Positions 1-62,735 of a stretch of 64,000 bases of DNA are shown here, piece after piece. Positions within the stretch are counted from its first letter, which is position 1, and each line of letters opens with the position of its first letter. Made by a program: the position numbers and the translations under genes. The notes below the pieces were generated by a model. The model saw only the letters and a list, made by a program, of their open reading frames with translations. It had not been told where the DNA came from and did not search any database. The stretch lies in assembly GCF_057098645.1 (NCBI RefSeq), contig NZ_CM169472.1. One strand, 5' to 3'.

Positions 1-1331
1 AGCTGGAACGCAATCATCCCAACGATGGCACCGACAGTGCCGAGGATGGTTTCCATCATGGTCCAGGTTTTCAGCGTTTCGGCTTCGGTCGCGCCGGTAA
101 ATTTACCGAACAACCAGAAACCAGCGTCGTTAACGTGGCTGACAACAATCGAACCACCGGCGATACAAATCGACAGCGCCGCCATTTGCGCACCGGAGTA
201 GTTCAGTTGTTCAATGACTGGCATCACCAGTCCCACCGCCGTTAAACAGGCAACGGTGGCAGAACCCTGAATGATGCGCACTGCAGCGGCCAGCACGAAG
301 CAGGTGATAGCAATCGGCAGGCCCATGCCGGTTAACGCTTCGCCCAGTGCCGGACCTACGCCAGAGTCAACCAGCACCTGTTTGAACACGCCGCCCGCAC
401 CAATCACCAGCAGAATGATCCCCGCCGGTTGCAGCGCGTGACCGCAAATCTCCATCACTTTGTCTTTTGGCATGCCCTGACGCATTGCCAGGCCATAAAT
501 CGCTACCAGACAAGCAACCAGAATTGCGGTAAACGGATGACCAATAAACTCGAACCATTCGTAAGCGGTAGAGCCTTCTGGCACAAAACGCGCGGCAATG
601 GTTTTCAGCCCCACCAGCACCAGCGGCAGCAGGATCAGCGACAGGCTGAATCCGAAGGACGGCATTTTGCCTTCGCCGAGATGCGGCTCGCTGATGTCGT
701 CAGGAATATGCAACTCCACGTAGCGGCTGATGAAGTTACCCCACAGCGGCCCGGCAATAATCATTCCCGGAATTGCCGCACACAGGCCAATCAGGATCAT
801 CCAGCCAAAATCGGCGTTCATCTGCGATGCCAGCAGCATTGGCGCTGGCCCTGGCACCAGGAACGCCGCCGCTGCCGCCACGCCTGCGAATAATGGGATT
901 ACCAGCTTCACCAGGTTCGTACCGGTGTGGCGCGCCATTGAGAAAGCAACGCTAATCAGCAGAACAATCGCCACTTCAAAGAACAGCGGTAGCGCACAGA
1001 CCAGCCCCGCAAGGCCGATGGCATAATGCGCGCGGCTGTGACCGAAGGATTTAAGCATTTTGACGGCAATCTGATCGACTGCGCCGGTTTCATGTAAGAT
1101 CTTGCCAAACATAGCTCCCAGGGCGACAACCACCGCCAGGAAGCCGAGGGTGCCTCCCATCCCTTTTTCCATCGTCGCTGCGATTTTATCGAGCGGCATA
1201 CCGGAAAAAAGGCCAGCCCCCATGGACACCACCATTAAAGCCAGGAAAGCGTGCATACGCGCCTTCATGACTAAAAACAGCAGCAGTAAAACAGACCCTA
1301 CTGCTGTTAAAACAAGCGTTAATGTAGTCAC
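1..1331 (-). CDS. gntU: Gluconate:H+ symporter (GntP family), 5' portion; gene continues beyond window start
   Basis: Reverse-strand translation from GTG at 1331 gives MTTLTLVLTAVGSVLLLLFLVMKARMHAFLALMVV... with no stop to position 1; sits 4 nt downstream of the gntK stop, as in the gntRKU operon. Confidence 0.85.
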   Translation of the reverse strand, partial: MTTLTLVLTAVGSVLLLLFLVMKARMHAFLALMVVSMGAGLFSGMPLDKIAATMEKGMGGTLGFLAVVVALGAMFGKILHETGAVDQIAVKMLKSFGHSRAHYAIGLAGLVCALPLFFEVAIVLLISVAFSMARHTGTNLVKLVIPLFAGVAAAAAFLVPGPAPMLLASQMNADFGWMILIGLCAAIPGMIIAGPLWGNFISRYVELHIPDDISEPHLGEGKMPSFGFSLSLILLPLVLVGLKTIAARFVPEGSTAYEWFEFIGHPFTAILVACLVAIYGLAMRQGMPKDKVMEICGHALQPAGIILLVIGAGGVFKQVLVDSGVGPALGEALTGMGLPIAITCFVLAAAVRIIQGSATVACLTAVGLVMPVIEQLNYSGAQMAALSICIAGGSIVVSHVNDAGFWLFGKFTGATEAETLKTWTMMETILGTVGAIVGMIAFQ

Positions 1332-1334
1332 TAC

Positions 1335-1862
1335 TTATTTGCCTTTTTTAATAACCTCAATGGTGCTTGCCACAACACCTTCCAGCGGTTGATCGATATC
1401 CACCACCAGTACATCGGTTTCGTCCGCACCCGGCTCCTGCAGCGTTTCAAACTGCGTCACCAACATTTGGGTTTTAAAGAAATGGCCTTTGCGCGCTTTC
1501 AGGCGGCTTTCAATCACATCAAAATCGCCTTTCAGGTAGATGAAAGAGAGATTCGGATTACCTTCACGCAGCAAGTCGCGATAGTGTTTTTTCAATGCAG
1601 AACAGACGATCAGTGACACTTTATTAGTGCGCTGCATAGCAAACGCGGCGTCGTTCAGCGCCTGCAACCACGGTTTGCGATCATCGTCATTCAGCGGTTC
1701 GCCAGACGCCATTTTTTCGATATTGCGCCGTGGATGGAGGAAATCGCCATCAAGAAACGCGGCATGAAGTTGATGCGCCACTTCACTTGCGACCGCAGAT
1801 TTGCCGCTGCCCGATACGCCCATCAAGACGTAAATGTGGTGATCATGGTTAGTCGTGCTCAA
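1335..1862 (-). CDS. gntK: Gluconokinase (175 aa)
   Basis: ORF track 1335..1883; Walker A GVSGSGKS; start moved to the TTG giving MSTTNHDHH; lies between gntR and gntU. Confidence 0.9.
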   Translation of the reverse strand: MSTTNHDHHIYVLMGVSGSGKSAVASEVAHQLHAAFLDGDFLHPRRNIEKMASGEPLNDDDRKPWLQALNDAAFAMQRTNKVSLIVCSALKKHYRDLLREGNPNLSFIYLKGDFDVIESRLKARKGHFFKTQMLVTQFETLQEPGADETDVLVVDIDQPLEGVVASTIEVIKKGK

Positions 1863-1892
1863 AGTGGTGCCCCCACAATACAAGAATTAAAA

Positions 1893-1921
1893 ATGTTACG
1901 GGTAACTGTTATCGGTAACAT
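1893..1921 (-). promoter_or_regulatory. GntR operator palindrome in the gntK promoter region
   Basis: Near-perfect palindrome ATGTTACGGGTAACTGTTATCGGTAACAT between gntR stop and gntK start. Confidence 0.55.
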
Positions 1922-2000
1922 TGTCCAGCCGGACATTATCAGAAGCAATATCCATCCGTGCCTTAAGTGTATAAGTGTGAGCTACTTCAAATTTGTGGGC

Positions 2001-2996
2001 TTAAATAGATCCGCCCGGTGACAAGGTGAAACCTAAATCTAACATTTTCGGTGTCACAGATTCGCCACGAATACGCGCCAGCAGGCGTTCAGCGCCAATA
2101 CTGCCCATCCGCTCACGCGGCGTCAGCACGCTCGCAAGTCGTGGCTCCATCACCTGACCAATGTCATGACCGTGGAAACCGGCAATCGCCATATCGTCAG
2201 GAACTTTTAACCCCAGACGCTGACATTCAAACGCCGCGCCGACCGCCAGGTCATCATTAGTACAGAACACGCCATCCAGCTGCGGATATTCTCGCCGCGC
2301 CTGGCGAATCAGTTCAATACCGGAAGAGTAAGAAGAAGATTGCTCAACCATCACGCTATACGGCACCAGGCCTGCATCCAGCATCGCCTGTTCGTATCCC
2401 TTCTGTTTGATGATAGTACGTTCGTCGAGACGTGCGCCGAGATAGGCAATGTGGCGATGGCCGCGAGCAATAATGGCGGCGGTCATCTGGCGTGCCGCTT
2501 CAAAGTTATCAAAACCGACGGCGATATCGAGGCACGGCGACTTGCTGTCCATCAGTTCCACCACGGGAATACCCGCCACTTCAATCATCTTTAAGGTGCG
2601 CGGCGTGTGGGTACGTTCGGTGAGGATAAGTCCGTCGATATTCCATGAGAGCATTGATTCGAGACGTTCTTGCTCCATTTCCGGTTTATAACCGTAGTGC
2701 GCCAGCATGGTCTGATAACCGTGCGCGTCGGTGACACTTTCGATTCCGCGTAATACTTCCGCGAAAACCTGGTTGGTGAGAGAAGGTAACAGGACGCCAA
2801 TCGCCCGGCTGGTGGCGTTAGAGAGGATATCGGGCGCACGATTGGGAATATAGCCCAGTTCATCAAGAGCCGCGGCAATCTTGCCGCGTAGAGCGACGGA
2901 AACCTGCTCCGGGTTGCGTAAAAAACGGCTGACCGTCATTTTGGTCACGCCTACACGGTCAGCCACATCCTGAAGTACGGGTCTTTTCTTTTTCAT
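2001..2996 (-). CDS. gntR: LacI-family gluconate repressor
   Basis: 331 aa ORF; N-terminal HTH (VTKMTVSRFL) and periplasmic-binding-protein-like sugar domain; position upstream of gntK. Confidence 0.9.
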   Translation of the reverse strand: MKKKRPVLQDVADRVGVTKMTVSRFLRNPEQVSVALRGKIAAALDELGYIPNRAPDILSNATSRAIGVLLPSLTNQVFAEVLRGIESVTDAHGYQTMLAHYGYKPEMEQERLESMLSWNIDGLILTERTHTPRTLKMIEVAGIPVVELMDSKSPCLDIAVGFDNFEAARQMTAAIIARGHRHIAYLGARLDERTIIKQKGYEQAMLDAGLVPYSVMVEQSSSYSSGIELIRQARREYPQLDGVFCTNDDLAVGAAFECQRLGLKVPDDMAIAGFHGHDIGQVMEPRLASVLTPRERMGSIGAERLLARIRGESVTPKMLDLGFTLSPGGSI

Positions 2997-3219
2997 CGTC
3001 CTGAAGGTACAAAAGAGATAGATTCTCTTAGTTTAACACGGACGCATCAGAACCTTCCCGGGGAAAACAGTGCTTGTTTACAATTATTAGATATACACTA
3101 AATCAATTGCATCGCATTGTGCTAACGACGCGGCAAAACCCCGGAAGCGTACATCAGCACGCGACCGGAGCGAGCGAGGAAGCCTGCAAAAAGGCAGGCT
3201 TCAAAGATGCCGTTGAGCT

Positions 3220-6132: not shown

Positions 6133-6878
6133 ATGAGTAATATTGTTTATCTGACAGTAACGGGAGAACAACAAGGAAGCATCTCCGCAGGTTGTGGGAC
6201 TACTTAATCTATAGGTAATCGCTGGCAGAGCGGGCATGAGAATGAAATATTTACATTCTCACTCGCAAATAGCATTACTAATACGGGGCTTGGTTCACAG
6301 TTACAGGGTATAACATTTTGTAAATTAATTGATAAAAGCACTCCATTACTTATTAATTCCATTAACAATAATGAGCAATTATTTATGGAATTTGACTTTT
6401 ATAGAATCAATAGATTTGGCAGATGGGAAAAGTATTATTATATACAACTAAGAGGCGCTTTTTTATCGGCTATTCATCATCAGATCATTGAAAATCAACT
6501 GGATACAGAAACAATAACTGTTAGTTATGAATTTATCCTCTGTCAACATCTTATCGCAAATACCGAGTTCAGCTATTTGGTTGGCACTCCCTGAAAATTA
6601 TAACCGTTTGTTTTTACCAAATTCAAAAAACCAAACAAATAATGGTTTCAAAACGTTAAACAGCAAAGCTGTTGGCAGGCTACTTGCTGCTGGTGGCGTA
6701 TACAATGGGAACATTGAAGGTTTCAGAGATACTGCGGAAAAACTGGGTGGAGATGCAATCAAAGGCTATGATCAAATACTAAATGAAAAAACAGCGGGCA
6801 TAGCGATAGCAACAGCATCTATTCTTTTAACAAAGCGTTCTAAAGTTGATACATATACAGAAATAAATAGTTACTTAG
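6133..6878 (+). pseudogene. yhhZ: Hcp-domain-fused toxin gene, 5' part (Hcp-ET type T6SS effector); in-frame TAA at 6205-6207 and a frameshift in the 6527-6594 overlap
   Basis: ATG 6133 encodes MSNIVYLTVTGEQQGSISAGCGTT then stop; same frame reopens 6208..6594 (SIGNRWQSGHENEIFTFSLANSITNTGLGSQLQGITFCKLIDK...), then shifts to the 6527..6925 frame and runs into the IS5 end; AT-rich; positional equivalent of K-12 yhhZ (symbol assigned by position, from memory). Confidence 0.6.
6875..6878. repeat. Target-site duplication TTAG (left copy) of the IS5 insertion
   Basis: TTAG immediately precedes the IS left terminus GGAAGGTGCGAATAAGC at 6879; identical TTAG follows the right terminus at 8075. Confidence 0.7.
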
Positions 6879-8074
<1,196 letters not shown>

Positions 8075-17371: not shown

Positions 17372-18121
17372 TCATTGCACCACACTCTGCTTCAACCGTT
17401 CATTGGCGGTCTTAATCCATTCCCGGTGGTGTTTTCTATAATGAGGTCTTGAGCGTTTAGCCGTATCAACTACAGCAACATACTGCTCGTTGGCTTCACG
17501 TAACCGACTCATTTTCGCCAACATTTCCGCATAGTAAATACGCGCCTGCGGGCCGGGGTAATAAGAAATCAATACTTCAAACTCGCTTTCCGCATCAGCG
17601 TATTTTTCTTGTGCGGCTAACGTTCTGGCAAATAACAAATGCCCGTCTGCCGACTGAAAATCAGGGTTATAACGCATCACATCTTCCAGCGTCTGCTGAC
17701 AGGCGGCGAACTCCTGAATAGCAAACTGTGCCTGCGCCAGGCTTAGCATCATTGCCGCCGCTTCATGGGCGAATATCCCGCTTAACGCCTGCTGATAATG
17801 GGGAACGGCTTCGTGGTAACGCTCCAGACGCGCCAGCTCGTTGGCAAGTTGATAGTGGTTTTGATTGGTCTCGGCAATCGCCAGCTCTTCGGTTAATTTG
17901 CGCAGGTGACGTTCCGGATTGATTTTGTCCTGCAGGCGCATCAGAAAGGTACGCCCGTGACGGTCAGCGCCCGTTTCTGGCAGCATCACCATGACAAAAT
18001 ACGCCACGCAACCAATCACCGGAAAACAGAAGATGATAAAAAACCAATATCGCTCTTGTCCGGTACGGTAAGCGTGGATACAGCAAAGCATTTCAAGCAT
18101 GGCGACAACGGCATAATGCAT
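17372..18121 (-). CDS. Hypothetical inner-membrane protein: N-terminal PLD-nuclease-N-like transmembrane hairpin plus cytoplasmic helical-repeat (TPR-like) domain
   Basis: 249 aa ORF; GGAAAGG Shine-Dalgarno about 9 nt before the ATG; hydrophobic segment YWFFIIFCFPVIGCVAYFVMVML; helical repeat body; own terminator; E. coli-like composition. Confidence 0.55.
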   Translation of the reverse strand: MHYAVVAMLEMLCCIHAYRTGQERYWFFIIFCFPVIGCVAYFVMVMLPETGADRHGRTFLMRLQDKINPERHLRKLTEELAIAETNQNHYQLANELARLERYHEAVPHYQQALSGIFAHEAAAMMLSLAQAQFAIQEFAACQQTLEDVMRYNPDFQSADGHLLFARTLAAQEKYADAESEFEVLISYYPGPQARIYYAEMLAKMSRLREANEQYVAVVDTAKRSRPHYRKHHREWIKTANERLKQSVVQ

Positions 18122-23076: not shown

Positions 23077-23500
23077 AGTCAAAAATCCCCATTCGTGATG
23101 TTGTGTTGCTTTGTTTTTATGTGTTAACAAATCAGACTGTTCTTTTTTTATACTGCACTGTTTTTGCCTGTCTGATTAAGGGTTTAGCGCAGTATTTTGT
23201 GATAATAGCGATTAAAGTCCCTATTTTTCAGTCGATTAAGAACAGATAATATTCTGAATTTATTGATAGATAAACAGAAAAAAGTGCCTTTGTCAGCATA
23301 AAATAACGGCATAAAGGGCGGAATAATTCACTACCATTCAGGGGATTATGCTGGACATTTTTCATTCTCTAATGTTTTAACTTTGTAATTATTGCTGAAA
23401 AAAAAATTAATCACCTGCCAAAAGAAATAAAAAAGAGAAAGCCTCCGATTAAATTATTTCGTTACACTGGTTCCACTTTTGTGATTTACACGGGTTCCCC

Positions 23501-23884
23501 ATGAAGCTGACCATCATTCGATTAGAAAACTTTAGCGACCAGGACCGGATTGACCTGCAAAAGATCTGGCCGGAGTATTCCCCTTCCTCTTTACAGGTTG
23601 ACGATAACCACCGCATCTACGCCGCGCGTTTTAACGAGCGCCTGCTCGCTGCCGTACGGGTAACCTTAAGCGGCACCGAGGGAGCACTGGATTCCCTGCG
23701 CGTGCGGGAAGTCACTCGACGTCGCGGTGTGGGGCAATATCTGCTGGAAGAGGTTTTGCGTAACAATCCTGGCGTTTCATGCTGGTGGATGGCGGATGCA
23801 GGCGTGGAAGATCGCGGTGTGATGACGGCGTTTATGCAGGCGCTGGGGTTTACGGCACAGCAGGGCGGCTGGGAGAAGCGTTAA
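23501..23884 (+). CDS. panM: PanD maturation/regulatory factor (GNAT-like, 127 aa)
   Basis: MKLTIIRLENFSDQDRIDLQKIWPEYSPSSLQVDDNHRIYAARFNERLLAAVRV...; conserved position between livK and livJ. Confidence 0.85.
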   Translation: MKLTIIRLENFSDQDRIDLQKIWPEYSPSSLQVDDNHRIYAARFNERLLAAVRVTLSGTEGALDSLRVREVTRRRGVGQYLLEEVLRNNPGVSCWWMADAGVEDRGVMTAFMQALGFTAQQGGWEKR

Positions 23885-24408
23885 TCGCTCTGTGTAAAAA
23901 GCAGTTCAATGGATTTGGTTGGGAAAAATAACGCATTTTCGTTTTCCCCGACCAACGGGATAAAGCCCAGCGATTTATAAAACGTATGGGCTTTTTCATT
24001 CAGCGCCTCTACAAAAAGACCGTGAATACCTACTGCTAAAGAGGCTGACCAGACGACTTTCATGGCATGAGCAACCAGTGTTGCTCCCCATCCCTGCCCC
24101 TGTATTGAATGATCAATTGCCAGACGCCCAAGAGTGACGCTGGGAATATTTTTGTAGGGAATTTTTTTCTGTTTCGATTTCGAGGGCAATGCGGCTCGTT
24201 CAAAACAACTGCCGCATAATGTGTAATATCCCAGCACCTGACGTTCTGGAGTGTTGCGACAAAGGATATACGCTCGCAGAATTTTGTTGCGATGTTGACG
24301 AACGAGATGTGTCGTCAGAAAGAGATTTAACGCTTCCTCGCCGCAGTCGAATCGCTGTAGATCATAATCTGCATCATCGGTCAGAATCTCTATCGTCAGA
24401 TCATCCAT
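23881..24408 (-). CDS. GNAT-family toxin of a type II TA system (AtaT/TacT/ItaT-like aminoacyl-tRNA acetyltransferase)
   Basis: 175 aa; acetyl-CoA motif QGQGWGATLVAHAM; immediately downstream of, and 7 nt from, an RHH/DUF1778-like ORF; stop overlaps the panM stop convergently. Confidence 0.8.
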   Translation of the reverse strand: MDDLTIEILTDDADYDLQRFDCGEEALNLFLTTHLVRQHRNKILRAYILCRNTPERQVLGYYTLCGSCFERAALPSKSKQKKIPYKNIPSVTLGRLAIDHSIQGQGWGATLVAHAMKVVWSASLAVGIHGLFVEALNEKAHTFYKSLGFIPLVGENENALFFPTKSIELLFTQSD

Positions 24409-24414
24409 AAATTA

Positions 24415-24681
24415 TTACATTCCCTGAAGACGTTTTACCGCACGTTTTAGCTTTTCACCTGGTGACGGTGGATTACTCAGCGCATCCATCACCCGCGTCC
24501 AGGATTCCTCATTGAGGATCACCCGCCGATGCTGTTCAATCACTTCCGCAGCCCGCTGCGAAGCGCTGTTCAACATAAATTGGCTGACGGACTGATTAGA
24601 TATCGCTGCCGCTTCCTCAATCATACTTTTGTCATCGTCAGTTAAACGCAGATCGATACGCTGCTTTTTAACAGCAGACAT
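24415..24681 (-). CDS. DUF1778/RHH-type antitoxin (AtaR/TacA-like)
   Basis: 88 aa; typical antitoxin N-terminus (KKQRIDLRLTDDDKSMIEEAAAISNQSVSQFMLNSA); GGAGAG SD; first gene of the two-gene operon. Confidence 0.8.
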   Translation of the reverse strand: MSAVKKQRIDLRLTDDDKSMIEEAAAISNQSVSQFMLNSASQRAAEVIEQHRRVILNEESWTRVMDALSNPPSPGEKLKRAVKRLQGM

Positions 24682-24694
24682 GTGAACTCTCCTG

Positions 24695-24730
24695 CTCCGT
24701 ATAATATGTACGGCACATCACCGTACAATA
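24695..24730 (-). promoter_or_regulatory. Putative TA promoter with overlapping inverted repeats (candidate autoregulatory operator)
   Basis: Minus strand: TTGTAC - 16 nt - TATTAT with inverted repeats GTACGG...CCGTAC spanning the spacer, then the GGAGAG SD. Confidence 0.4.
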
Positions 24731-24773
24731 AGCATATCCTGGATTGTTTAATCTTTCTACAACCATTTCGACA

Positions 24774-24810
24774 AACATAAAAAAACCCGATGGACGTTAA
24801 GCGCATCGGG
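24774..24810 (-). terminator. Rho-independent terminator of livJ
   Basis: Minus-strand hairpin CCCGATG-(loop)-CATCGGG followed by TTTTTTT. Confidence 0.6.
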
Positions 24811-24830
24811 CATTTTCATTTATCTATCCG

Positions 24831-25934
24831 TTACTTCGCATCGGTCGCCGTGCCGTTGGCGTGCCAGTCAAACACACCGAACTCAAAGCCTTTCAGATCG
24901 CCTTTCTCATCCCAGGTCAGCGGTCCCATTACGGTATCCACGGAGTTCGCTTTCAGGTATTTGGCGATTTCAGCCGGATCGTCAGACTGATTCAGGCCCG
25001 CCTGCAAAGATTGCAGCGCGGCGTAGGTGGTCCAAACGAATGCGCCGCTTGGGTCCTGTTTTTTCGCTTTGATCGCATCAACAATGGGTTTGTTTGCCGG
25101 AACCTGATCGTAGTTCTTCGGCTTGGTCACCAGCAGCCCTTCCGCTGACTCGCCCGCAATGTTAGACAGCGAGACGTTAGCCACGCCTTCCGGCCCCATA
25201 AACTGAGTTTTCAACCCTGCCGCGCGTGCCTGACGCAGGATTTGCCCCATTTCCGGGTGATAACCGCCGTAGTAAACGAAGTCGATATTCTCTTTTTTCA
25301 GACGCGCCACCAGCGTTGAGAAATCTTTTTCCCCGGCGGTGATGCCATCAAAGAACACCACGTTAGCATTGCCTTTCTTCAGGCCGTCCTGCACCGCACG
25401 CGCCAGACCTTCGCCGTATTGCTGTTTGTCGTGAACGATAGCAATACGCTGCGGTTTCACTTTCTCAAGAATATATTTCGCCGCCGTCGGCCCCTGGTCG
25501 GAGTCCAGGCCGGTGGTGCGCAGGATCAGCTGATAGCCACGGGCGGTCAGCTCCGGCGCGGTTGCCGCTGGGGTGATCATTAAAATGCCTTCGTCTTCGT
25601 AGATGTCAGACGCAGGCTGCGTTGATGAAGAACAGAGGTGACCAATCACATATTTAATGCCGTCGTTAACGACTTTGTTCGCCACCGCAACCGCCTGTTT
25701 CGGGTCACAGGCATCGTCATATTTTACGATTTGCAGTTTGTTGCCTTTAATGCCGCCTTTAGCGTTGATATCCGCAACCGCCTGCTCTGCGCCGGTAAAC
25801 TCCTGGTCACCGTACTGCGCAACCGGACCGGACATTGCGCCCACGACCGCGACTTTAATATCTTCTGCCAGAGCCATATTGCTGAATGCCAGCGCGATAC
25901 ATCCTGCCAGTAACGCTTTACCCTTTATGTTCAT
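24831..25934 (-). CDS. livJ: Leu/Ile/Val-binding periplasmic protein
   Basis: ORF track 24831..25991; start moved to [23 protein letters not shown]. Confidence 0.9.
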
Positions 25935-39964: not shown

Positions 39965-40354
39965 ATGAGACATTACATGAAATGGTTTGCGGCTATTGCT
40001 GTTGTGGGTGCTTTAGCGGGTTGCGCGCGTACTGCGCCAATTGTTCAGGTTCACTCAACCGTCAGCGCTGGTCATACCCAGGAACAAGTGAAAAAAGCGA
40101 TTCTGAAAGCTGGCGTTGAACGCAAATGGATTATGTCCGAAGCCGGACAAGGCATAATTAAAGCACGTCAACAGTCACGCGATCATTCAGCGGAAATACG
40201 CATTAACTACACGGCATCCAGCTACGATATCAATTATGAAAATAGCCAGAACCTACAAGCGTCAGGCGGACAAATTCATAAAAACTACAATCGCTGGGTC
40301 CGCAATCTCGACAAAGATATTCAACTGAATTTGTCAGCGGGCGCAGATTTATAA
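39965..40354 (+). CDS. Small lipoprotein, first gene of the APE-like cluster
   Basis: 129 aa; signal peptide with lipobox (VVGALAGCA); preceded by about 380 bp of AT-rich leader. Confidence 0.55.
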   Translation: MRHYMKWFAAIAVVGALAGCARTAPIVQVHSTVSAGHTQEQVKKAILKAGVERKWIMSEAGQGIIKARQQSRDHSAEIRINYTASSYDINYENSQNLQASGGQIHKNYNRWVRNLDKDIQLNLSAGADL

Positions 40355-40413
40355 TTCTTCCTAAAGTCGGGCCGTTGCGGTCCGATAATAATTTAATTCC
40401 CTCTTAACAGGTT

Positions 40414-41481
40414 GTGCCCAACATGTACGAACAGGATTCTCTTAGCGCACTGGATGCGATTACCGAAGCTCAACGCATTGCCTTTGCCCCTATGCTTTTT
40501 CAAACAGCACTCTGCCTACGTAATGCGGGTGTACTTTCATATCTGGATCGGCAAGGCAAACATGGCGCAACGCTGGCTGATATCACCGAACATAGCCATA
40601 TCAACGAATATGCTGCCAGCGTTCTGTTAGATATGGGCTTAAGCGGGCGAATTATTACCTGTAAAGAGGGAATTTATTACCTGGCGAAAATCGGTCATTA
40701 CCTCCTGCATGACACTATGACTCGCGTGAATATGGATTTCACCCAGGATGTCTGTTACCAGGGGCTCTTCTTCCTCGCCGATTCACTCAATGAAGGAAAA
40801 CCTTCCGGGTTAAAAGTATTTGGCGACTGGTCGACGATATATCCGGCACTTTCGCAATTACCAGACGCCGCTCGTGAAAGCTGGTTTGCGTTTGATCATT
40901 ACTATTCAGATGGCGCATTTAACGCCGCACTGCCTTATGTATTCGCCAACAACCCCACAACATTGTACGATGTAGGCGGCAATACGGGTAAGTGGGCTTT
41001 GCGTTGCTGCAAATACAATGAAAACATCGCCGTGACGTTATTAGATCTGCCACAACAAATCGTACTAGCGAAAGAAAATATCGCGAATGCAGGTTTTTCT
41101 GATCGCATAGATTTCCATGCGGTGGATATGCTAAGCGATGCCCCATTACCGGGCGAGGCTGATATCTGGTGGATGAGCCAATTTTTAGACTGTTTTTCAC
41201 CCGAACAAATAATTAGCATACTCAGCAAAATCGCCAGCGTAATGAAGCCTGGCGCAAAAGTTTGCATCATGGAGTTGTTCTGGGATGCGCAGCGGTTTGA
41301 AGCAGCATCATTTAGCCTGAACGCGTCCTCACTTTATTTTACCTGCATGGCAAACGGTAACAGCCGTTTCTATAGTGCAGAGAAATTTTACGACTATCTG
41401 AATAAAGCAGGATTCCAGGTAGCAGAGCGCCACGATAATTTAGGCGTTGGGCATACACTTTTGATATGCCAAAAGAAATAA
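40414..41481 (+). CDS. Class I SAM-dependent O-methyltransferase
   Basis: 355 aa; N-terminal dimerisation-like region and Rossmann fold DVGGNTGKWA; track start is GTG 40414, an ATG lies at 40423. Confidence 0.7.
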   Translation: MPNMYEQDSLSALDAITEAQRIAFAPMLFQTALCLRNAGVLSYLDRQGKHGATLADITEHSHINEYAASVLLDMGLSGRIITCKEGIYYLAKIGHYLLHDTMTRVNMDFTQDVCYQGLFFLADSLNEGKPSGLKVFGDWSTIYPALSQLPDAARESWFAFDHYYSDGAFNAALPYVFANNPTTLYDVGGNTGKWALRCCKYNENIAVTLLDLPQQIVLAKENIANAGFSDRIDFHAVDMLSDAPLPGEADIWWMSQFLDCFSPEQIISILSKIASVMKPGAKVCIMELFWDAQRFEAASFSLNASSLYFTCMANGNSRFYSAEKFYDYLNKAGFQVAERHDNLGVGHTLLICQKK

Positions 41482-41521
41482 TCGTCACTTAATAATTTTG
41501 GTTTACCGCGGGCGCGCGTTG

Positions 41522-42244
41522 ATGAAATTTACATTAAATATTACCGACTGGCAGGCACTGGCGCCTGGACTTAGCGAAGCGCAGCAATGGCAAGCATGGT
41601 CGCGCCAGCCGTGGGCGATTGACCCTGCCGCGCCGTTGGCAAAATTAAGTGAACTGCCAATGATGACCGCCCGCCGCCTCAGTTCAGGCAGCAAACTGGC
41701 TGTTGAATGCGGTCTGGCAATGCTACGCCGCCATCAGCCAGACGCCGTTTTGTATACCAGTCGTCATGGCGAACTGGAGCGCAATTACCGCATTGTTCAT
41801 GCACTGGCAACCGAACAGGCGCTTTCTCCGACCGACTTTGCACTTTCAGTACACAACTCTTCCGTGGGTAACCTGACCATTGCGGCCAAACAGCCGATCG
41901 TTTCGTCATCGCTTTCTGCTGGTCGCGACACTTTCCAGCAAGGTTTGTGTGAAGTGCTTAGCCTGTTACAAGCGGGATACCAGCGCGTGCTGATGGTCGA
42001 TTTTGACGGTTTCCTGCCCGAGTTTTATCACCCACAACTGCCATCAGAAATGCCGACCTGGCCGTACGCCGTCGCGCTGGTGATTGAAGCTGGCGATGAC
42101 TGGCAATGTGAAACGCAGTCAGCCATTGCGGGCAATGAAACAACACTGCCGCAAAGCATGTTGTTTTTACAGCACTATTTACAAAATGTAGACACATTTT
42201 CACTGCCTGGCGAGCGCGTGCAATGGCGCTGGAGCCACAGATGA
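41522..42244 (+). CDS. Ketosynthase-like protein lacking the active-site Cys (chain-length-factor-like partner)
   Basis: ORF track 41498..42244; start moved to ATG giving MKFTLNITDWQ; thiolase-fold-like N-terminal half, no Cys-His-His triad. Confidence 0.6.
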   Translation: MKFTLNITDWQALAPGLSEAQQWQAWSRQPWAIDPAAPLAKLSELPMMTARRLSSGSKLAVECGLAMLRRHQPDAVLYTSRHGELERNYRIVHALATEQALSPTDFALSVHNSSVGNLTIAAKQPIVSSSLSAGRDTFQQGLCEVLSLLQAGYQRVLMVDFDGFLPEFYHPQLPSEMPTWPYAVALVIEAGDDWQCETQSAIAGNETTLPQSMLFLQHYLQNVDTFSLPGERVQWRWSHR

Positions 42245-43062
42245 GTAAGCTGATGTCACGTCTGGAGTGGACCTGGCGACTGGTCATGACCGGGTTATGT
42301 TTTGCCCTGTTTGGTCTCGGCGGCCTGCTGCTTTCTGTCGTGTGGTTTAACATATTGTTAGTTTTGGTGTGGGATACTTCCCGCCGCCGTCGTTTGGCGC
42401 GTCGCAGCATTGCCGCCAGTTTTCGCCTGTTTTTAACTGTCGCGAAAGGGCTTGGCGTGCTGGATTATCGTATTGATGGCGCTGAAATTTTACGTCAGGA
42501 ACGCGGTTGCCTCGTCGTAGCCAATCATCCCACGCTGATCGATTACGTGCTGCTGGCGTCAGTCATGCCAGAAACTGACTGCCTGGTGAAAAGCGCGCTG
42601 TTAAAAAATCCTTTTCTTGGCGGCGTCGTGCGGGCGGCAGATTATTTAATCAACAGCGAAGCTGAAACCCTGTTACCCCGCTGCCAACAGCGACTGGCAC
42701 AGGGTGACACTATCCTGATTTTCCCCGAAGGCACGCGAACGAAGCCCGGTGAAAAAATGACGCTGCAGCGCGGGGCGGCGAATATTGCCGTGCGCTGTGC
42801 CAGCGATTTACGCATCGTGACGATCGGCTGTAGCGAGCATCTGCTGGATAAACAAAGTAAATGGTATGACGTTCCACCTGACCGGCCGTTTTTTACGGTT
42901 GCAGTCCATGGTCGGGTTGAAATCAATAAATTTTACGATGCAACTTCACAAGAACCGGCGCTGGCAGCAAGGCAGTTAAACCGGCATCTTTTGCTTCAAT
43001 TACAACAAGGTTGTTTACCTCTCTCAGGAATAAATAATGCAAGCGCTTTATCTGGAAATTAA
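42241..43062 (+). CDS. Lysophospholipid (1-acyl-glycerol-3-phosphate-type) acyltransferase
   Basis: HX4D motif NHPTLID and FPEGTR motif; ATG overlaps previous stop (ATGA). Confidence 0.75.
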   Translation: MSKLMSRLEWTWRLVMTGLCFALFGLGGLLLSVVWFNILLVLVWDTSRRRRLARRSIAASFRLFLTVAKGLGVLDYRIDGAEILRQERGCLVVANHPTLIDYVLLASVMPETDCLVKSALLKNPFLGGVVRAADYLINSEAETLLPRCQQRLAQGDTILIFPEGTRTKPGEKMTLQRGAANIAVRCASDLRIVTIGCSEHLLDKQSKWYDVPPDRPFFTVAVHGRVEINKFYDATSQEPALAARQLNRHLLLQLQQGCLPLSGINNASALSGN

Positions 43063-43294
43063 AAACCTCATCATCAGCACCCTCAATCTGGACGAGTTGA
43101 CGCCTGATGATATCGATACCGACGCGCCGCTGTTTGGCGACGGTTTAGGGCTGGACTCTATCGATGCCCTGGAACTGGGACTGGCAGTAAAAAATGAGTA
43201 CGGCATCGTGCTCTCTGCGGAAAGCGAAGAGATGCGTCAGCACTTTTTCTCCGTCGCCACTCTGGCCTCTTTCATTGCTGCGCAACGTGCCTGA
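43037..43294 (+). CDS. Acyl carrier protein 1
   Basis: 85 aa; phosphopantetheine attachment motif GLDSIDALEL. Confidence 0.8.
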   Translation: MQALYLEIKNLIISTLNLDELTPDDIDTDAPLFGDGLGLDSIDALELGLAVKNEYGIVLSAESEEMRQHFFSVATLASFIAAQRA

Positions 43295-43305
43295 GGAAAG
43301 CCATC

Positions 43306-43557
43306 ATGACAGAACAACAAACCGTCTATCAGGAAGTCTCAGCCCTGCTGGTTAAGCTGTTTGAAATCGATCCGCAGGACATCAAACCTGAAGCGCGCCT
43401 GTACGAAGATCTGGAACTGGACAGCATCGACGCCGTTGACATGATTGTGCACCTGCAAAAGAAAACCGGTAAGAAAATCAAGCCGGAAGAGTTTAAAGCC
43501 GTGCGTACAGTCCAGGATGTCGTCGAGGCTGTAGAACGCCTGCTACAAGAAGCCTGA
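43306..43557 (+). CDS. Acyl carrier protein 2
   Basis: 83 aa; motif LELDSIDAVDM. Confidence 0.8.
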   Translation: MTEQQTVYQEVSALLVKLFEIDPQDIKPEARLYEDLELDSIDAVDMIVHLQKKTGKKIKPEEFKAVRTVQDVVEAVERLLQEA

Positions 43558-43561
43558 TCTG

Positions 43562-44143
43562 ATGTCGGGCATTCGCTCGCTACCGATGATTAAGCTGCTG
43601 ACTGGATTATTGCTGCTCGCCTGGCCGTTTGTGATTTGGTTTGGCTTAGCGCATAACGGCCTGCACTGGCTGTTACCGCTAATGGCGTTGCTGCTTTTGT
43701 TGCGTCTGCGCCAGACCCGTCGCCAGGCGGGGCCTTTACAAGCCGTCACGCAACTCGTCGCTGTCGTGGGCATCGCATTATGTGTCGCCAGCTTTATGTT
43801 GAAAACGCACCAGCTACTGCTGTTTTACCCGGTAGTGGTTAACGCGGTCATGCTGGCGGTTTTTGGCGGTTCGCTGTGGTCGGCAATGCCGATAGTTGAG
43901 CGGCTGGCGCGGTTGCAGGAGCCAGACCTCCCGGAAAAGGGCGTGCGCTATACCCGCCACGTCACGCAAATCTGGTGCGGCTTTTTCATCATTAACGGTG
44001 GAATTGCCCTCTTTACCGCGCTTTATGCCGATATGTCGTTATGGACCGCCTGGAACGGCATGATTGCTTATTTGTTGATGGGGACGTTAATGGCTGGTGA
44101 ATGGCTGCTGCGCCGTCAGGTGATGAAAAGAGATCGCGCATGA
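43562..44143 (+). CDS. Polytopic membrane protein of unknown function
   Basis: 193 aa with several hydrophobic helices; conserved position after the ACP pair. Confidence 0.55.
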   Translation: MSGIRSLPMIKLLTGLLLLAWPFVIWFGLAHNGLHWLLPLMALLLLLRLRQTRRQAGPLQAVTQLVAVVGIALCVASFMLKTHQLLLFYPVVVNAVMLAVFGGSLWSAMPIVERLARLQEPDLPEKGVRYTRHVTQIWCGFFIINGGIALFTALYADMSLWTAWNGMIAYLLMGTLMAGEWLLRRQVMKRDRA

Positions 44144-45501
44144 AGCAGACCTTACCGCTTGCACGCTGGCTGACTGCGCCACGCCCTGATGACACACCCA
44201 TTGCGTGGCTGGACGAAAGCTTCTGGACGCTGGGCGATTTGCGTCACGATGTCGCGCAACTTATCTGCCGCTTGCAGCAACAGCCGGGTGAACGCTGGGC
44301 GCTGTGCTTTGAGAACAGCTATCTGTTTATCGTTGCCCTGCTCGCCACGCTACACGCCGGAAAAACGCCGGTGCTTCCGGGGCATAACCGTGTTATCCAG
44401 CTTAACGAGCAACGTGAACTTTTTGATGGTGTGCTTAGCGACAGCGAACTTAACTGGCAAGGTTCATTGCTGTTGGTAGCAAGTTCTCCACAAATCGCGA
44501 CACAATCCTTCACCTTTTCCGCTATAGCGCCAGAGGCTTTTATCGAGCTGTTTACCTCTGGTTCCACGGGACAGCCGAAGCGGGTGATTAAACCTGTTCA
44601 TTTGCTGGACCGTGAAGCAGAACTGCTGGCTGAACGATTAGGCGCACGTCTGGCGGGTTGTCGTGTCGTCGGTTCCGTATTGCCGCAGCATTTGTACGGC
44701 CTGACTTTTCGCGTTTTCCTGCCAATGGCGCTGGGATTACCCCTACATGCCGCCATGCTCTGGTATGTCGAACAGTTTGCCGCGTTGAGTCATCAGCATC
44801 GCTATATCTTCATCAGCAGCCCGGCATTTTTGAAGCGTCTGGATACACAGATTTCCCCGCCCCCCGTTCAGGTGCTTCTCTCTGCTGGCGGTGAGCTACC
44901 GTGGCAGGACGTACAACACACCGCGAACTGGCTGCGCGTCTGGCCTGATGAAATCTACGGCAGCACGGAAACCGGCGTCATTGCCTGGCGTTACCGCGAT
45001 CAGGAGCAACGCCGCTGGCAGCCCTTCCCCGGTATGCAGTTCCGGGCCGAAGGGAATGCATTTCGTCTCTTTTCCCCGCTGATGACGGAAGATAACGGCC
45101 TGTTACTCGACGATATCTTACAGTTTAGCGAAGATGGTCAGTTCCATCTGATGGGGCGTCGCGGACGCATCGTTAAGATTGAAGAAAAACGTATTTCGTT
45201 GCAGGAAGTGGAACAACGTCTGCTGGCACTGGACGGTATTCGCGAGGCGGCGGCAGTTCCTGTTACGCGCGGCGGGCGTCAGAGCATAGGCGTTTTGCTG
45301 GTGCTGGATGACGAAGCTCGTCTGCAATGGCAGAACGGCGGCGGGCATAGCCAGGAAATGACCTGGCGGCGATTACTACGCCCGACGCTGGAGCCTGTTG
45401 CCATTCCGCGTTACTGGCGCGTTATTGATGAAATGCCAGTAAACAGTATGAACAAGCGTGTCTATGCGCAATTACAGGAGTTATTTCATGAAGCCCCATG
45501 A
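44140..45501 (+). CDS. AMP-dependent synthetase/ligase (acyl/aryl-adenylating enzyme)
   Basis: AMP-binding motif TSGSTGQPK; ATG 44140 overlaps previous stop (ATGA). Confidence 0.8.
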   Translation: MKQTLPLARWLTAPRPDDTPIAWLDESFWTLGDLRHDVAQLICRLQQQPGERWALCFENSYLFIVALLATLHAGKTPVLPGHNRVIQLNEQRELFDGVLSDSELNWQGSLLLVASSPQIATQSFTFSAIAPEAFIELFTSGSTGQPKRVIKPVHLLDREAELLAERLGARLAGCRVVGSVLPQHLYGLTFRVFLPMALGLPLHAAMLWYVEQFAALSHQHRYIFISSPAFLKRLDTQISPPPVQVLLSAGGELPWQDVQHTANWLRVWPDEIYGSTETGVIAWRYRDQEQRRWQPFPGMQFRAEGNAFRLFSPLMTEDNGLLLDDILQFSEDGQFHLMGRRGRIVKIEEKRISLQEVEQRLLALDGIREAAAVPVTRGGRQSIGVLLVLDDEARLQWQNGGGHSQEMTWRRLLRPTLEPVAIPRYWRVIDEMPVNSMNKRVYAQLQELFHEAP

Positions 45502-45841
45502 AATCGAGCGCCATCAGGCACAAGCGAATCACCTTGAGATTGTTTTGCATCTCAGGGCAGATCTGTTCTGGTTTCGCGGCCATTTTGCCGTGCAACCATT
45601 ACTCCCTGGCGTGGCACAAATCGACTGGGCAATGAGTTACGCGCTTGCCCTGCTCGCGCCTGGCTGGCGTTTTCACTCCATTCAGAACATAAAATTTCAG
45701 TCTCCGTTGCTGCCGGAAAACCGCGTCACGCTCACGCTTAACTGGCAGGAAGATCGCCAGATTCTGAGCTTTAGCTATCAGCGTCACGACGGTGACGCCC
45801 GCCACACCGCCAGTAGCGGGAAGATCCGCCTATGTCGGTAA
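45488..45841 (+). CDS. Hotdog-fold 3-hydroxyacyl-ACP dehydratase-like protein
   Basis: 117 aa from ATG 45488 (MKPHEIERHQ...); overlaps the ligase stop. Confidence 0.5.
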   Translation: MKPHEIERHQAQANHLEIVLHLRADLFWFRGHFAVQPLLPGVAQIDWAMSYALALLAPGWRFHSIQNIKFQSPLLPENRVTLTLNWQEDRQILSFSYQRHDGDARHTASSGKIRLCR

Positions 45842-47508
45842 ACTTTTCGCCCTGCGTGTTGATCCCCTGCTACAACCACGGCGCGATGATGCCGGGCGTG
45901 CTGGCGCGTCTTAAGCCATTTAATCTGCCCTGTATTGTGGTGGACGACGGCAGCGATGCCGCCACGCAACAGCAACTGGACAGTCTGCTTGCCGAGCAGC
46001 CTGGCGTGACTTTAATTCGCCTGGCAGAAAACGCAGGCAAAGGCGCGGCGGTGATGTACGGCTTACAGGCGGCGAAAGACGCGGGCTTCAGCCATGCGGT
46101 GCAGGTGGATGCTGACGGTCAACATGCGATTGAAGATATCCCCAAACTGCTGGCAGTCGCTGAACAACACCCTGCGGCGCTGATCTCCGGCCAGCCAATT
46201 TACGATGACTCCATCCCCCGCTCACGGCTTTACGGGCGCTGGGTCACCCACGTCTGGGTATGGATCGAAACGCTCTCCCTGCAACTGAAAGACAGCATGT
46301 GCGGTTTTCGCGTTTATCCGGTTGCGCCGACGCTGCAACTGGCAAAACACGCCACCATCGGCAAGCGGATGGATTTCGACACTGAAGTGATGGTGCGCCT
46401 CTACTGGCAGGGAAACACCAGCTATTTCGTGCCGACCCGCGTCACCTATCCACTGGACGGGCTTTCACATTTTGATGCCCTGAAAGATAACGTCCGCATC
46501 TCGCTCATGCACACGCGTCTGTTTTTCGGCATGTTGCCGCGTATTCCTTCACTGCTGATGCGCCGCTCTTCCAGCCACTGGGCGCGGCAGAGTGAAGTGA
46601 AAGGATTATGGGGAATGCGCCTGATGCTGCTGGTCTGGCGTCTGCTGGGAAGAACGGCGTTTAGCGCGCTGCTTTACCCGGTGGTGGGCGTCTACTGGCT
46701 CACTGCTTCTCGTGCGCGCAAAGCGTCGCAAGACTGGCTCGCCCGTGTACGACAGCATCAACCACAGGCGGCAAAACTCAACAGCTATCAGCACTTTCTA
46801 CGTTTCGGTAATGCCATGCTCGACAAAATCGCCAGCTGGCGCGGCGAGCTACAACTGGGGCGTGATGTGCTGTTTGCGCCAGGCGCAGAAGCGGCGCTTG
46901 ACGTCCGCGATCCGCGCGGCAAATTGCTGCTGGCCTCGCATCTTGGCGATGTGGAAGTGTGCCGGGCGCTGGCAAAAATTCAGGGCTACAAAACCATTAA
47001 CGCGCTGGTGTTTAGCGAAAACGCCCAACGCTTTAAACAGATAATGCAGGAGATGGCCCCGCAGGCTGGTATCAACCTGATGCCGGTAACAGATATCGGC
47101 CCGGAAACCGCCATCCTGCTAAAAGATAAGCTGGATAACGGCGAATGGGTGGCGATTGTCGGCGACCGCATCGCCGTCAACCCGCAACGCGGCGGCGACT
47201 GGCGCGTCTGCTGGAGTCCGTTTATGGGCCAGCCTGCGCCTTTCCCACAGGGGCCATTTATTCTCGCGTCTATTTTGCGCTGCCCGGTGAATCTGATTTT
47301 CGCCCTACGCCAGCACGGCAAGCTGCATATTCACTGCGAAACCTTTGCCGACCCGCTGCTGTTGCCGCGTGGCGAACGCCAACAGGCGCTGCAAAACGCT
47401 ATCGACCACTACGCCGCGCGTCTGGAACATTACGCGCTCCAGTCGCCCCTCGACTGGTTTAATTTTTTCGATTTCTGGCAACTGCCGGAAATTCAGGACA
47501 AGGAGTAA
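45832..47508 (+). CDS. Fusion protein: family-2 glycosyltransferase N-domain plus lipid-A-type (LpxL/HtrB-like) acyltransferase C-domain
   Basis: 558 aa; N-terminus CVLIPCYNHG...VVDDGSDA (GT2 signature); C-terminal half resembles lauroyl/myristoyl acyltransferases. Confidence 0.65.
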   Translation: MSVNFSPCVLIPCYNHGAMMPGVLARLKPFNLPCIVVDDGSDAATQQQLDSLLAEQPGVTLIRLAENAGKGAAVMYGLQAAKDAGFSHAVQVDADGQHAIEDIPKLLAVAEQHPAALISGQPIYDDSIPRSRLYGRWVTHVWVWIETLSLQLKDSMCGFRVYPVAPTLQLAKHATIGKRMDFDTEVMVRLYWQGNTSYFVPTRVTYPLDGLSHFDALKDNVRISLMHTRLFFGMLPRIPSLLMRRSSSHWARQSEVKGLWGMRLMLLVWRLLGRTAFSALLYPVVGVYWLTASRARKASQDWLARVRQHQPQAAKLNSYQHFLRFGNAMLDKIASWRGELQLGRDVLFAPGAEAALDVRDPRGKLLLASHLGDVEVCRALAKIQGYKTINALVFSENAQRFKQIMQEMAPQAGINLMPVTDIGPETAILLKDKLDNGEWVAIVGDRIAVNPQRGGDWRVCWSPFMGQPAPFPQGPFILASILRCPVNLIFALRQHGKLHIHCETFADPLLLPRGERQQALQNAIDHYAARLEHYALQSPLDWFNFFDFWQLPEIQDKE

Positions 47509-47511
47509 AGG

Positions 47512-47934
47512 GTGCTTAACGATCCCCGATTTACCGCTGAAGTCGAGCTGACCATTCCCTTTCACGACGTCGATATGATGGGCGTGGCCTGGCACGGTAA
47601 CTATTTTCGCTACTTTGAAGTGGCCCGCGAGGCGCTGCTCAACCAGTTCAATTACGGCTATCGGCAGATGAAAGAGTCCGGTTATTTGTGGCCAGTGGTC
47701 GATGCGCGGGTGAAATATCGCCACGCCCTCACCTTTGAGCAACGCATCCGCGTGCGTGCGCATATCGAAGAGTTCGAAAACCGTCTGCGGATTGGCTATC
47801 AGATTTTCGATGCCGAAACGGGCAAACGCGCCACCACCGGATACACCATTCAGGTCGCGGTCGACGAGCAAAGTCGCGAACTGTGCTTTGTCAGCCCCGA
47901 TATTCTGTTTGAACGCATGGGAGTCAAATCATGA
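47512..47934 (+). CDS. Hotdog-fold acyl-CoA/ACP thioesterase (4HBT/YbgC-like)
   Basis: 140 aa; motif HDVDMMGVAWHGNYFRYFE. Confidence 0.7.
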   Translation: MLNDPRFTAEVELTIPFHDVDMMGVAWHGNYFRYFEVAREALLNQFNYGYRQMKESGYLWPVVDARVKYRHALTFEQRIRVRAHIEEFENRLRIGYQIFDAETGKRATTGYTIQVAVDEQSRELCFVSPDILFERMGVKS

Positions 47935-48536
47935 AATTTTTACCGCTGCTGGCGCTGCTGATTAGCCCGTTTGTGAGCGCCCTGAGCCTGGACGATCTTC
48001 AGCAACGCTTTACCGAACAGCCGGTGATCCGCGCCCATTTCGATCAAACCCGGACGATTAAAGATCTGCCGCAGCCGCTGCGATCTCAGGGCCAGATGTT
48101 GATCACCCGCGACCAGGGGCTGTTGTGGGATCAAACCTCACCGTTCCCCATGCAACTATTACTGGACGATAAACGCATGGCGCAGGTGATCAACGGTCAG
48201 CCGCCGCAAATCATCACGGCAGAAAATAACCCGCAGATGTTCCAGTTTAACCACCTGCTGCGCGCGCTGTTCCAGGCCGATCGCAAAGTGCTGGAACAAA
48301 ACTTCCGCGTCGAATTTGCCGACAAAGGCGAAGGCCGCTGGACGCTGCGCCTGACGCCGACCACCACGCCACTGGATAAAATTTTCAACACCATCGATCT
48401 CGCCGGGCAAACCTATCTGGAGAGCATTCAGCTTAATGATAAACAGGGCGATCGCACCGATATTGCTCTTACCCAACATCAACTGACACCAGCGCAACTG
48501 ACCGATGACGAACGCCAACGTTTTGCCGCCCAGTAA
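47931..48536 (+). CDS. LolA-like outer-membrane lipoprotein carrier protein
   Basis: 201 aa; signal peptide MKFLPLLALLISPFVSA; size and pattern of LolA/LolB-fold proteins. Confidence 0.55.
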   Translation: MKFLPLLALLISPFVSALSLDDLQQRFTEQPVIRAHFDQTRTIKDLPQPLRSQGQMLITRDQGLLWDQTSPFPMQLLLDDKRMAQVINGQPPQIITAENNPQMFQFNHLLRALFQADRKVLEQNFRVEFADKGEGRWTLRLTPTTTPLDKIFNTIDLAGQTYLESIQLNDKQGDRTDIALTQHQLTPAQLTDDERQRFAAQ

Positions 48537-50823: not shown

Positions 50824-51404
50824 TCAAACCCACATTCTGGCGAGCGTTTGCCCTGACCGCTACGCTTATCCTCACCGGCTGTAGCCACTCGCAACCAGAA
50901 CAGGAAGGCCGCCCGCAAGCGTGGCTGCAACCTGGCTCGCGCATCACGCTGCCTGCGCCGGGGATTTCACCCGCCGTCAATTCCCAGCAACTGTTGACCG
51001 GCAGCTTCAACGGCAACACCCAGTCGCTGCTAGTGATGCTTAACGCCGACGACCAGAAAATCACCCTTGCCGGACTGTCGTCGGTCGGCATTCGCCTGTT
51101 TCTGGTGACCTACGATGCGCAAGGGCTACGCGCCGAGCAATCCATCGTCGTCCCACAGTTACCGCCCGCAAGTCAGGTACTGGCTGACGTGATGCTCAGC
51201 CACTGGCCGATTAGCGCCTGGCAACCGCAACTTCCCGCAGGATGGACACTTCGCGACAACGGTGACAAACGCGAGCTGCGTAACGCCAGCGGCAAACTGG
51301 TCACGGAAATAACCTATCTGAATCGCAAGGGCAAACGCGTGCCAATCAGCATTGAGCAGCATGTCTTTAAATACCACATCACCATTCAATACTTAGGTGA
51401 CTGA
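50820..51404 (+). CDS. Lipoprotein of unknown function (DUF3261-like)
   Basis: 194 aa; lipobox LTGCSHS. Confidence 0.55.
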   Translation: MIKPTFWRAFALTATLILTGCSHSQPEQEGRPQAWLQPGSRITLPAPGISPAVNSQQLLTGSFNGNTQSLLVMLNADDQKITLAGLSSVGIRLFLVTYDAQGLRAEQSIVVPQLPPASQVLADVMLSHWPISAWQPQLPAGWTLRDNGDKRELRNASGKLVTEITYLNRKGKRVPISIEQHVFKYHITIQYLGD

Positions 51405-51405
51405 T

Positions 51406-52575: not shown

Positions 52576-53036
52576 GCCACTATTTATCCCCCGGCGCTTA
52601 TCTGCCCCACGACGCGCCCATGTTACTGCTGGAAGACGTGGTGAGCGTCAGCGATGACAGCGCGGTGTGCCGCGTAACGGTCTCGCCCAGCGGCGTACTG
52701 GCACCGTTCCTCGACCCGGACGGCAATCTACCCGGCTGGTTTGCCCTTGAACTGATGGCGCAAACCGTCGGTGTCTGGTCTGGCTGGCATCGCCGCCAGC
52801 AGGGCAAAAACAGTATTGAGTTAGGGATGATACTGGGCGCGCGTGAATTGCTTTGCACCACTGGCATTCTGCCCGCAGGCCAGACGCTGACCATTACCGT
52901 CAAACTGCTGATGCAAGACGATCGCTTCGGCAGTTTTGAGTGCAGCATCAACGACGGCGAGGCGACGGGCCGCATTAACACCTTCCAGCCGACCGCGGAA
53001 GAACTTACCACCCTGTTTCAACAAGGAGCGTCCTGA
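52572..53036 (+). CDS. Hotdog-fold dehydratase
   Basis: 154 aa; GTG start overlapping the KS stop. Confidence 0.55.
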   Translation: MSHYLSPGAYLPHDAPMLLLEDVVSVSDDSAVCRVTVSPSGVLAPFLDPDGNLPGWFALELMAQTVGVWSGWHRRQQGKNSIELGMILGARELLCTTGILPAGQTLTITVKLLMQDDRFGSFECSINDGEATGRINTFQPTAEELTTLFQQGAS

Positions 53037-54993: not shown

Positions 54994-54994
54994 T

Positions 54995-61015: not shown

Positions 61016-61212
61016 CACCTCCCAACGCGCCGTTATTTCCTCACGGCGCAGTAAATTCCTGCCAAACTTCGACTTCCATCACATTTTTTTGATCACGATT
61101 TGGTCCCTCAAAATGTGAGACGCTTCGATCCTCTTTTTCGCCTGTTCACCTACTATACGCTGAAGTTGTCCATGATTGTCCATAGACAACTGTAAATGTT
61201 CAGGTGCGCGCC

Positions 61213-61959: not shown

Positions 61960-61983
61960 GTACACTTTTTTAAGAGGAATAAA

Positions 61984-62457: not shown

Positions 62458-62735
62458 GTCAAACCATTTTATTTGTCTGCGCCACGGGTATTGCCACATC
62501 CACGGCGGTAACAGAAAAAGTCATGGAATATTGTAAAGAGCACGCTCTTAACGTCAATTATTCCCAAACCAACGTTGCCTCTTTACCTGGAAATACTGAT
62601 GGCGTAGCACTGGTAGTCTCAACGACTAAAGTGCCTTATGAACTCGACGTCCCGGTAGTTAACGGCTTGCCGATTATTACCGGTATTGGCGAAGAGAAAG
62701 TACTGGCGCAAATTGTTTCGATCCTTAAAAATTAA
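62454..62735 (+). CDS. PTS EIIB component, galactitol-type
   Basis: 93 aa; N-terminal phosphocysteine motif ILFVCATGIATS. Confidence 0.75.
   Translation: MSQTILFVCATGIATSTAVTEKVMEYCKEHALNVNYSQTNVASLPGNTDGVALVVSTTKVPYELDVPVVNGLPIITGIGEEKVLAQIVSILKN

Follow-up and report, generated by a model that had tools for sequence, protein, structure and literature searches.

The panM-livJ intergenic region of the 64-kb window (the whole stretch of DNA analysed here) contains two minus-strand ORFs, encoding proteins of 88 and 175 amino acids (aa) and named ataR and ataT below. An earlier reading made from the letters alone, hereafter the sequence-only reading, had described them as a DUF1778/RHH-like ORF and a GNAT ORF wedged between panM and livJ. 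Both ORFs lie on the minus strand where it had placed them, and the flanks are indeed panM, on the plus strand, and livJ, on the minus strand (Table 1). ataR is located 5' of ataT on the same strand; its stop codon is separated from the start codon of ataT, an ATG, by the 6 nt TAATTT (24409-24414), rather than by the 7 nt previously counted.

Table 1 Features of the panM-livJ region, with the promoter, operator and terminator elements given as predictions.
Feature	Position	Strand	Description	Basis
panM	23501-23884	+		ORF list
TTAA	23881-23884		Shared by the stop codons of ataT (-) and panM (+)	
ataT	23881-24408	-	175-aa GNAT toxin, acetyl-CoA-dependent aminoacyl-tRNA N-acetyltransferase	ORF list, PDB, Pfam
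ataR	24415-24681	-	88-aa antitoxin; N-terminal ribbon-helix-helix domain, C-terminal toxin-binding region	ORF list, PDB, Pfam, RefSeq
Shine-Dalgarno AGGAG	24689-24693	-	7 nt 5' of the ataR ATG	Read from sequence
Third half-site TACGG	24697-24701	-	Candidate; second inverted repeat CCGTA-N7-TACGG, overlapping the first	
Putative -10 TATTAT	24701-24706	-	Overlapped by the operator	Read from sequence
Palindrome TGTACGG-N7-CCGTACA	24707-24727	-	Probable AtaR/AtaRT operator core, predicted	Conserved arms
Weak -35 candidate TTGTAC	24723-24728	-		Read from sequence
Putative livJ intrinsic terminator CCCGATG-N11-CATCGGG then T7	24779-24810	-	Would part livJ from the ataRT promoter	
livJ	24831-25934	-	5' of ataR, same strand as the pair	

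Both proteins have near-identical counterparts of known structure. In a PDB sequence search, the 175-aa protein was identical to AtaT chain 6gts_A at 173 of 175 positions (residues 1-175, E 2.9e-116), the two differences being R100H and L102I, and similar AtaT matches were obtained with 6ajm, 6ajn, 6gtp, 6gtq/6gtr and 7chd. The 88-aa protein matched AtaR chain 6ajm_C, a protein also present in 6gto and 6gts, over all 88 residues, with 87 identities and A81V as the sole difference (E 2.4e-51). KacT and KacA of Klebsiella are the next-closest PDB relatives of AtaT and AtaR, and the remaining matching chains, with E values from 1e-20 to 1e-3, are further acetyltransferases, mostly co-deposited with DUF1778 or CopG-type partners. 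Pfam places AtaT in the GNAT families Acetyltransf_7, _1 and _10, and AtaR in TacA1 (PF08681, formerly DUF1778; E 1.4e-25, residues 8-86). The canonical QGQGWG acetyl-CoA motif picked out by the sequence-only reading maps to AtaT residues 103-108, following the family pattern Q/R-x-x-G-x-G/A, and both G108 and Y144 are present. The NCBIfam HMMs provided no AtaT- or AtaR-specific model, only weak sub-threshold matches (RimI-like, MobA, RelB); PanM was confirmed by NF033213 at 190 bits.

The pair displays the features of the GNAT/RHH (TacAT-like) family, namely an antitoxin-first bicistronic operon with a short gap, a GNAT toxin and a TacA1/DUF1778 antitoxin. No second GNAT/RHH pair, such as AtaRT2, was found within the window. 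The sequence-only reading had proposed a member of the AtaRT/TacAT/ItaRT tRNA-acetylating family, and had named a lack of likeness to characterised tRNA-acetylating toxins as evidence against its proposal. That likeness is close, as the window protein is near-identical to AtaT of solved structure, and the assignment can be narrowed from the family to AtaRT itself, the name that RefSeq also uses. We conclude that the pair almost certainly constitutes the known type II toxin-antitoxin operon ataR-ataT of the chromosome. Genetic, biochemical and structural studies have characterised AtaRT from 2017 onwards, and it is a known system whose structures are solved and which genome pipelines annotate routinely; here, the toxin-antitoxin module was recognisable from the raw sequence alone.

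The distribution of the module was assessed by a megablast search of the region 23400-24900 of the window against 5426 complete E. coli genomes. The flanks are present in 5424 of these genomes and the full region with the module in 1612 (about 30%), always on the chromosome and always in the same arrangement, livJ-ataR-ataT convergent with panM. RefSeq names ataT and ataR in every module-carrying record among the matches listed. The best match was strain 95-3192, with 100% identity, and EDL933 aligned at 98.2% identity over 1.5 kb with the same gene layout. K-12 DH10B and BL21-AI do not carry ataRT and have an unrelated spacer of 187 bp in its place, and comparison with the DH10B spacer bears out the sequence-only reading, which knew of no such pair in K-12. 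The K-12 spacer measures 187 bp from the panM stop to the livJ stop, versus 946 bp for the spacer with ataRT, and the two have no detectable similarity; a short-word BLAST search for an ataRT remnant in the K-12 spacer returned chance matches only (E at least 0.5). The repeats in this K-12 spacer are read here as REP-type, by the REP consensus.

Other features were recorded elsewhere in the window. A copy of IS5 (6878-8072), which encodes a 326-aa InsH-type transposase (7026-8006, minus strand), has GGAAGGTGCGAATAAG as its terminal inverted repeats, with a TTAG duplication at its flanks. It interrupts a tssD/yhhZ-like pseudogene that was already frameshifted, and is absent from strain 95-3192, which is otherwise 99.96% identical to the window; the two are therefore distinct, though closely related, strains. 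Between ugpB and livF, a 249-aa ORF (about 17372-18121, minus strand) is annotated as 'hypothetical protein' (WP_000558828.1 in strain 95-3192). On the plus strand, some 15 kb between yhhT and acpT (about 39970-55580) form a cluster with genes for ketosynthases, a chain-length factor, acyl carrier proteins, an ApeP-family dehydratase and FabG2, together with an MMPL transporter, a LolA-like protein, a glycosyltransferase and an acyltransferase; judging by its annotation, it may be the E. coli aryl-polyene-type lipid biosynthetic cluster. Directly after nikR, genes for a GntR-family regulator and for PTS IIA/IIB/IIC components of the galactitol type (about 61210-64000, plus strand) may form another accessory block.

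The module has a G+C content of 45.5%, against 52.8% for the whole window, 56.8% for panM and 54.5% for livJ. Despite this low G+C, the presence of the module at the same site in other species speaks against a recent insertion. In E. albertii and E. ruysiae it occupies the corresponding place, in the order livJ-ataR-ataT-panM, and Salmonella enterica subsp. salamae (GCA_007620915.1; extracted locus L016 2729-3519) carries a diverged AtaRT at the exact livJ-panM junction. Between the S. salamae locus and the window, protein identity is 96.8% for RpoH, 94.3% for LivJ, 83.5% for PanM, 79.8% for AtaR and 73.1% for AtaT. A plasmid origin was likewise rejected, because no copy above 80% identity was found on plasmids, and the only plasmid-borne relatives found, which are KacT-like and common on enterobacterial plasmids, share 60-69% identity. 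The 73%-identical pair at the panM-livJ junction of S. salamae makes it probable that the module is of long standing and has been lost in a patchy manner. Most simply, it would have resided in this spacer since before the divergence of Escherichia and Salmonella, with repeated losses that include those in the K-12 and B lineages; several independent gains at the one site are an alternative history, and not the simplest one. An old and patchily distributed resident of the panM-livJ spacer would bear on whether toxin-antitoxin systems of the chromosome have inserted recently as selfish elements or have resided there for long.

Two further forms of the toxin gene were noted. A 170-aa form of AtaT, five residues shorter and 92-94% identical, occurs in E. 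ruysiae, E. marmotae and some E. coli. In addition, a KacT-like GNAT gene with about 68% identity to AtaT is found on plasmids of 62-116 kb in E. coli and E. albertii. The chromosomal AtaRT and a paralogue on a plasmid could thus coexist in one strain, raising the question of cross-neutralisation.

The region between the livJ terminator and ataR contains the palindrome TGTACGG-TGATGTG-CCGTACA. In an alignment of six loci (the window, EDL933, a 96%-identical E. coli allele, E. albertii, E. ruysiae and the S. salamae homologue), both 7-nt arms are invariant and most of the spacer varies, so that even the diverged S. salamae pair keeps TGTACGG/CCGTACA. A second inverted repeat, CCGTA-CATATTA-TACGG, ends at 24697 and overlaps the first; the third half-site that it adds is present in the four E. 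coli alleles examined and absent in E. albertii, E. ruysiae and S. salamae. The sequence-only reading had reported overlapping inverted repeats at the promoter: both exist, and conservation across species holds for the first only. When the 89-nt upstream region was shuffled, a perfect 7-nt inverted repeat arose in 3.6% of the shuffles, and the three-half-site arrangement in 1 of 20000.

A consensus promoter scan, whose rule the -35 candidate is too weak to satisfy, found no sigma-70 site in the ataR upstream region, and we therefore infer the position of the ataRT promoter from the putative elements listed in Table 1. The 61-nt region of the putative livJ terminator folds with an RNA free energy of -22.9 kcal/mol. 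A terminator scan with a loop limit of 8 nt did not report this terminator, probably because its 11-nt loop exceeds that limit, and a repeat search of the promoter reported the terminator hairpin only, the 7-nt operator arms being shorter than its length threshold. As the operator core, the conserved palindrome is the strongest candidate, and its overlap with a plausible -10 fits the operator repression published for AtaRT. AtaRT is reported to bind a palindromic operator (PMC6698736), and published descriptions have an AtaT-AtaR4-AtaT heterohexamer repressing transcription from such an operator, for which its affinity falls when toxin is in excess (PMC6698736, PMC8138530, PMC10135005). The earlier suggestion that the repeats are suited to antitoxin autoregulation agrees with what has been published on the AtaRT-operator complex (PMC6698736, PMC8138530).

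The mechanism that we propose draws on studies of the near-identical O157:H7 proteins (PMC7595197, PMC7470980, PMC8138530, PMC10135005, PMC6698736). ataR and ataT would be co-transcribed from a promoter located just 3' of the livJ terminator. AtaT would act as a GNAT enzyme, homodimeric when active, that acetylates charged tRNAs and thereby blocks translation. The C-terminal region of AtaR would wrap AtaT and hold it in a monomeric state within the AtaT-AtaR4-AtaT heterohexamer, and this complex would bind the palindromic operator over the promoter and repress the operon, until excess toxin lowers its affinity and derepression follows. For the O157:H7 system, AtaT has been reported to acetylate aminoacyl-tRNAs on their alpha-amino group, and growth arrest by AtaT and its neutralisation by the antitoxin have been demonstrated with the EDL933 proteins (PMC7595197), AtaR preventing the dimerisation that activity requires (PMC8138530). 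Initiator Met-tRNAfMet was the first substrate reported, followed by Gly-, Trp-, Tyr- and Phe-tRNAs; consecutive G-C pairs in the lower part of the acceptor stem, together with the aminoacyl side chain, govern the choice of tRNA, and translation is blocked globally as a result (PMC7595197, PMC7470980). For the allele in the window, we infer toxicity, neutralisation, DNA binding and tRNA specificity from these proteins.

A different activity of AtaT may be the physiologically relevant one: AtaT is reported to acetylate K206 of EspB, a type III secretion translocon protein, and an EHEC ataT deletion mutant to be less virulent (PMC7957018). Protein lysine acetylation, enhancing virulence in enterohaemorrhagic strains, would then take the place of tRNA-based growth arrest, a possibility on which the close match of the window to strain 95-3192 may bear. 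We nevertheless consider it unlikely. The finding comes from a single report and does not exclude the tRNA activity, which crystal structures and in vivo and in vitro assays support (PMC7595197), and the module is also found in E. ruysiae, S. salamae and many non-EHEC E. coli. Acetylation of EspB would be a function added to the tRNA activity rather than a replacement for it.

At its other end, the operon meets panM. The sequence-only reading had described the toxin stop codon as overlapping that of panM head-to-tail: the overlap is real, and its orientation is instead convergent, or tail-to-tail, because the stop codons of both genes fall within a shared palindrome, TTAA. The same 4-bp ataT/panM overlap is found in E. 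albertii and E. ruysiae, and the corresponding overlap is CTAG in S. salamae. The convergent, overlapping stops of the ataRT-panM junction would thus have been kept since before the Escherichia-Salmonella split. PanM senses acetyl-CoA/CoA and controls the synthesis of pantothenate and CoA. The conserved overlap could in principle be functional, coupling an acetyl-CoA-consuming toxin to PanM, with convergent transcription or antisense effects letting toxin expression and CoA homeostasis interact, an idea that we regard as very unlikely; our search of the open-access literature found no paper that treats ataT and panM together.

We then consider the AtaT allele itself. The window protein is 98% identical to EDL933 AtaT (AAG58567.1), from which it differs by R100H, L102I and N117K, and its AtaR differs from that of EDL933 by A81V. 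Mutations reported to reduce or abolish AtaT toxicity comprise G108D, in acetyl-CoA binding, and Y144F, at a catalytic residue, as well as L27E, L136E, F30A, H34A/R37A/R40A, R71A, S76A, S78A, K77A/K79A/K81A/K82A, Y85A and R95A (Yashiro et al., PMC7595197). All of these residues (L27, F30, H34, R37, R40, R71, S76-K79, K81, K82, Y85, R95, G108, L136 and Y144) are unchanged in the window protein, in which the tRNA-contact residues of AtaT are also conserved. R100H and L102I lie 3 and 1 residues ahead of the acetyl-CoA motif, and this placement of two substitutions directly before the acetyl-CoA-binding site could mark an attenuated or inactive toxin, the module being a decaying remnant. Such decay is hardly credible, however: both ORFs are intact and full length, the residues shown to be important by mutagenesis are all kept, and the substituted positions vary in other AtaT proteins. 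K117 is shared with the solved chain 6gts_A, I102 is also found in E. ruysiae, and position 100 varies across the family between R, H and, in the S. salamae homologue, L. Moreover, the exact AtaT sequence is present on at least 1000 public contigs, where it is named AtaT, versus 219 for the EDL933 allele, and it is the commonest among those listed in its protein cluster. As the mutagenesis-tested residues are unchanged and positions 100 and 102 vary naturally, the H100/I102/K117 allele is expected to be active. Protection against phage is a role of some type II toxin-antitoxin systems, but there is next to no likelihood that AtaRT is mainly an anti-phage abortive-infection system, since no PADLOC defence model matched, the site is a core-genome intergenic region and not a defence island, and the AtaT papers cited here report no phage phenotype.

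Among known systems, the closest is AtaR-AtaT of O157:H7 EDL933/Sakai (ECs4308-ECs4307; PDB 6AJM, 6AJN, 6GTO-6GTS, 7CHD), in which the system was first characterised. The panM-livJ locus, the 88- and 175-aa proteins, the gene order and the operator arms are all the same, and the differences are confined to alleles (R100H, L102I and N117K in AtaT, A81V in AtaR) and to 3 of the 7 operator spacer bases. KacA-KacT of Klebsiella pneumoniae (PDB 5ZGN, 5XUN) shares the combination of a GNAT toxin and an RHH antitoxin, with the same sizes and architecture (toxin about 68% identical, antitoxin E 7e-38), and, as a heterohexamer, likewise binds a palindromic operator (PMC6698736). By contrast, its chromosomal site is a different one, with a gene for a CusS-type sensor kinase on one side and a roxA-like gene on the other, and it constitutes a distinct sister lineage. 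TacA-TacT of Salmonella, ItaR-ItaT of E. coli HS and AtaR2-AtaT2 of O157:H7 have only distant sequence similarity to AtaRT, but follow the same logic, in which a DUF1778/TacA1 antitoxin is paired with a GNAT toxin that acetylates aminoacyl-tRNAs, with differing reported tRNA specificities, for Ile, Val and Met in the case of ItaT and for Gly in that of AtaT2 (PMC7470980, PMC7367177).
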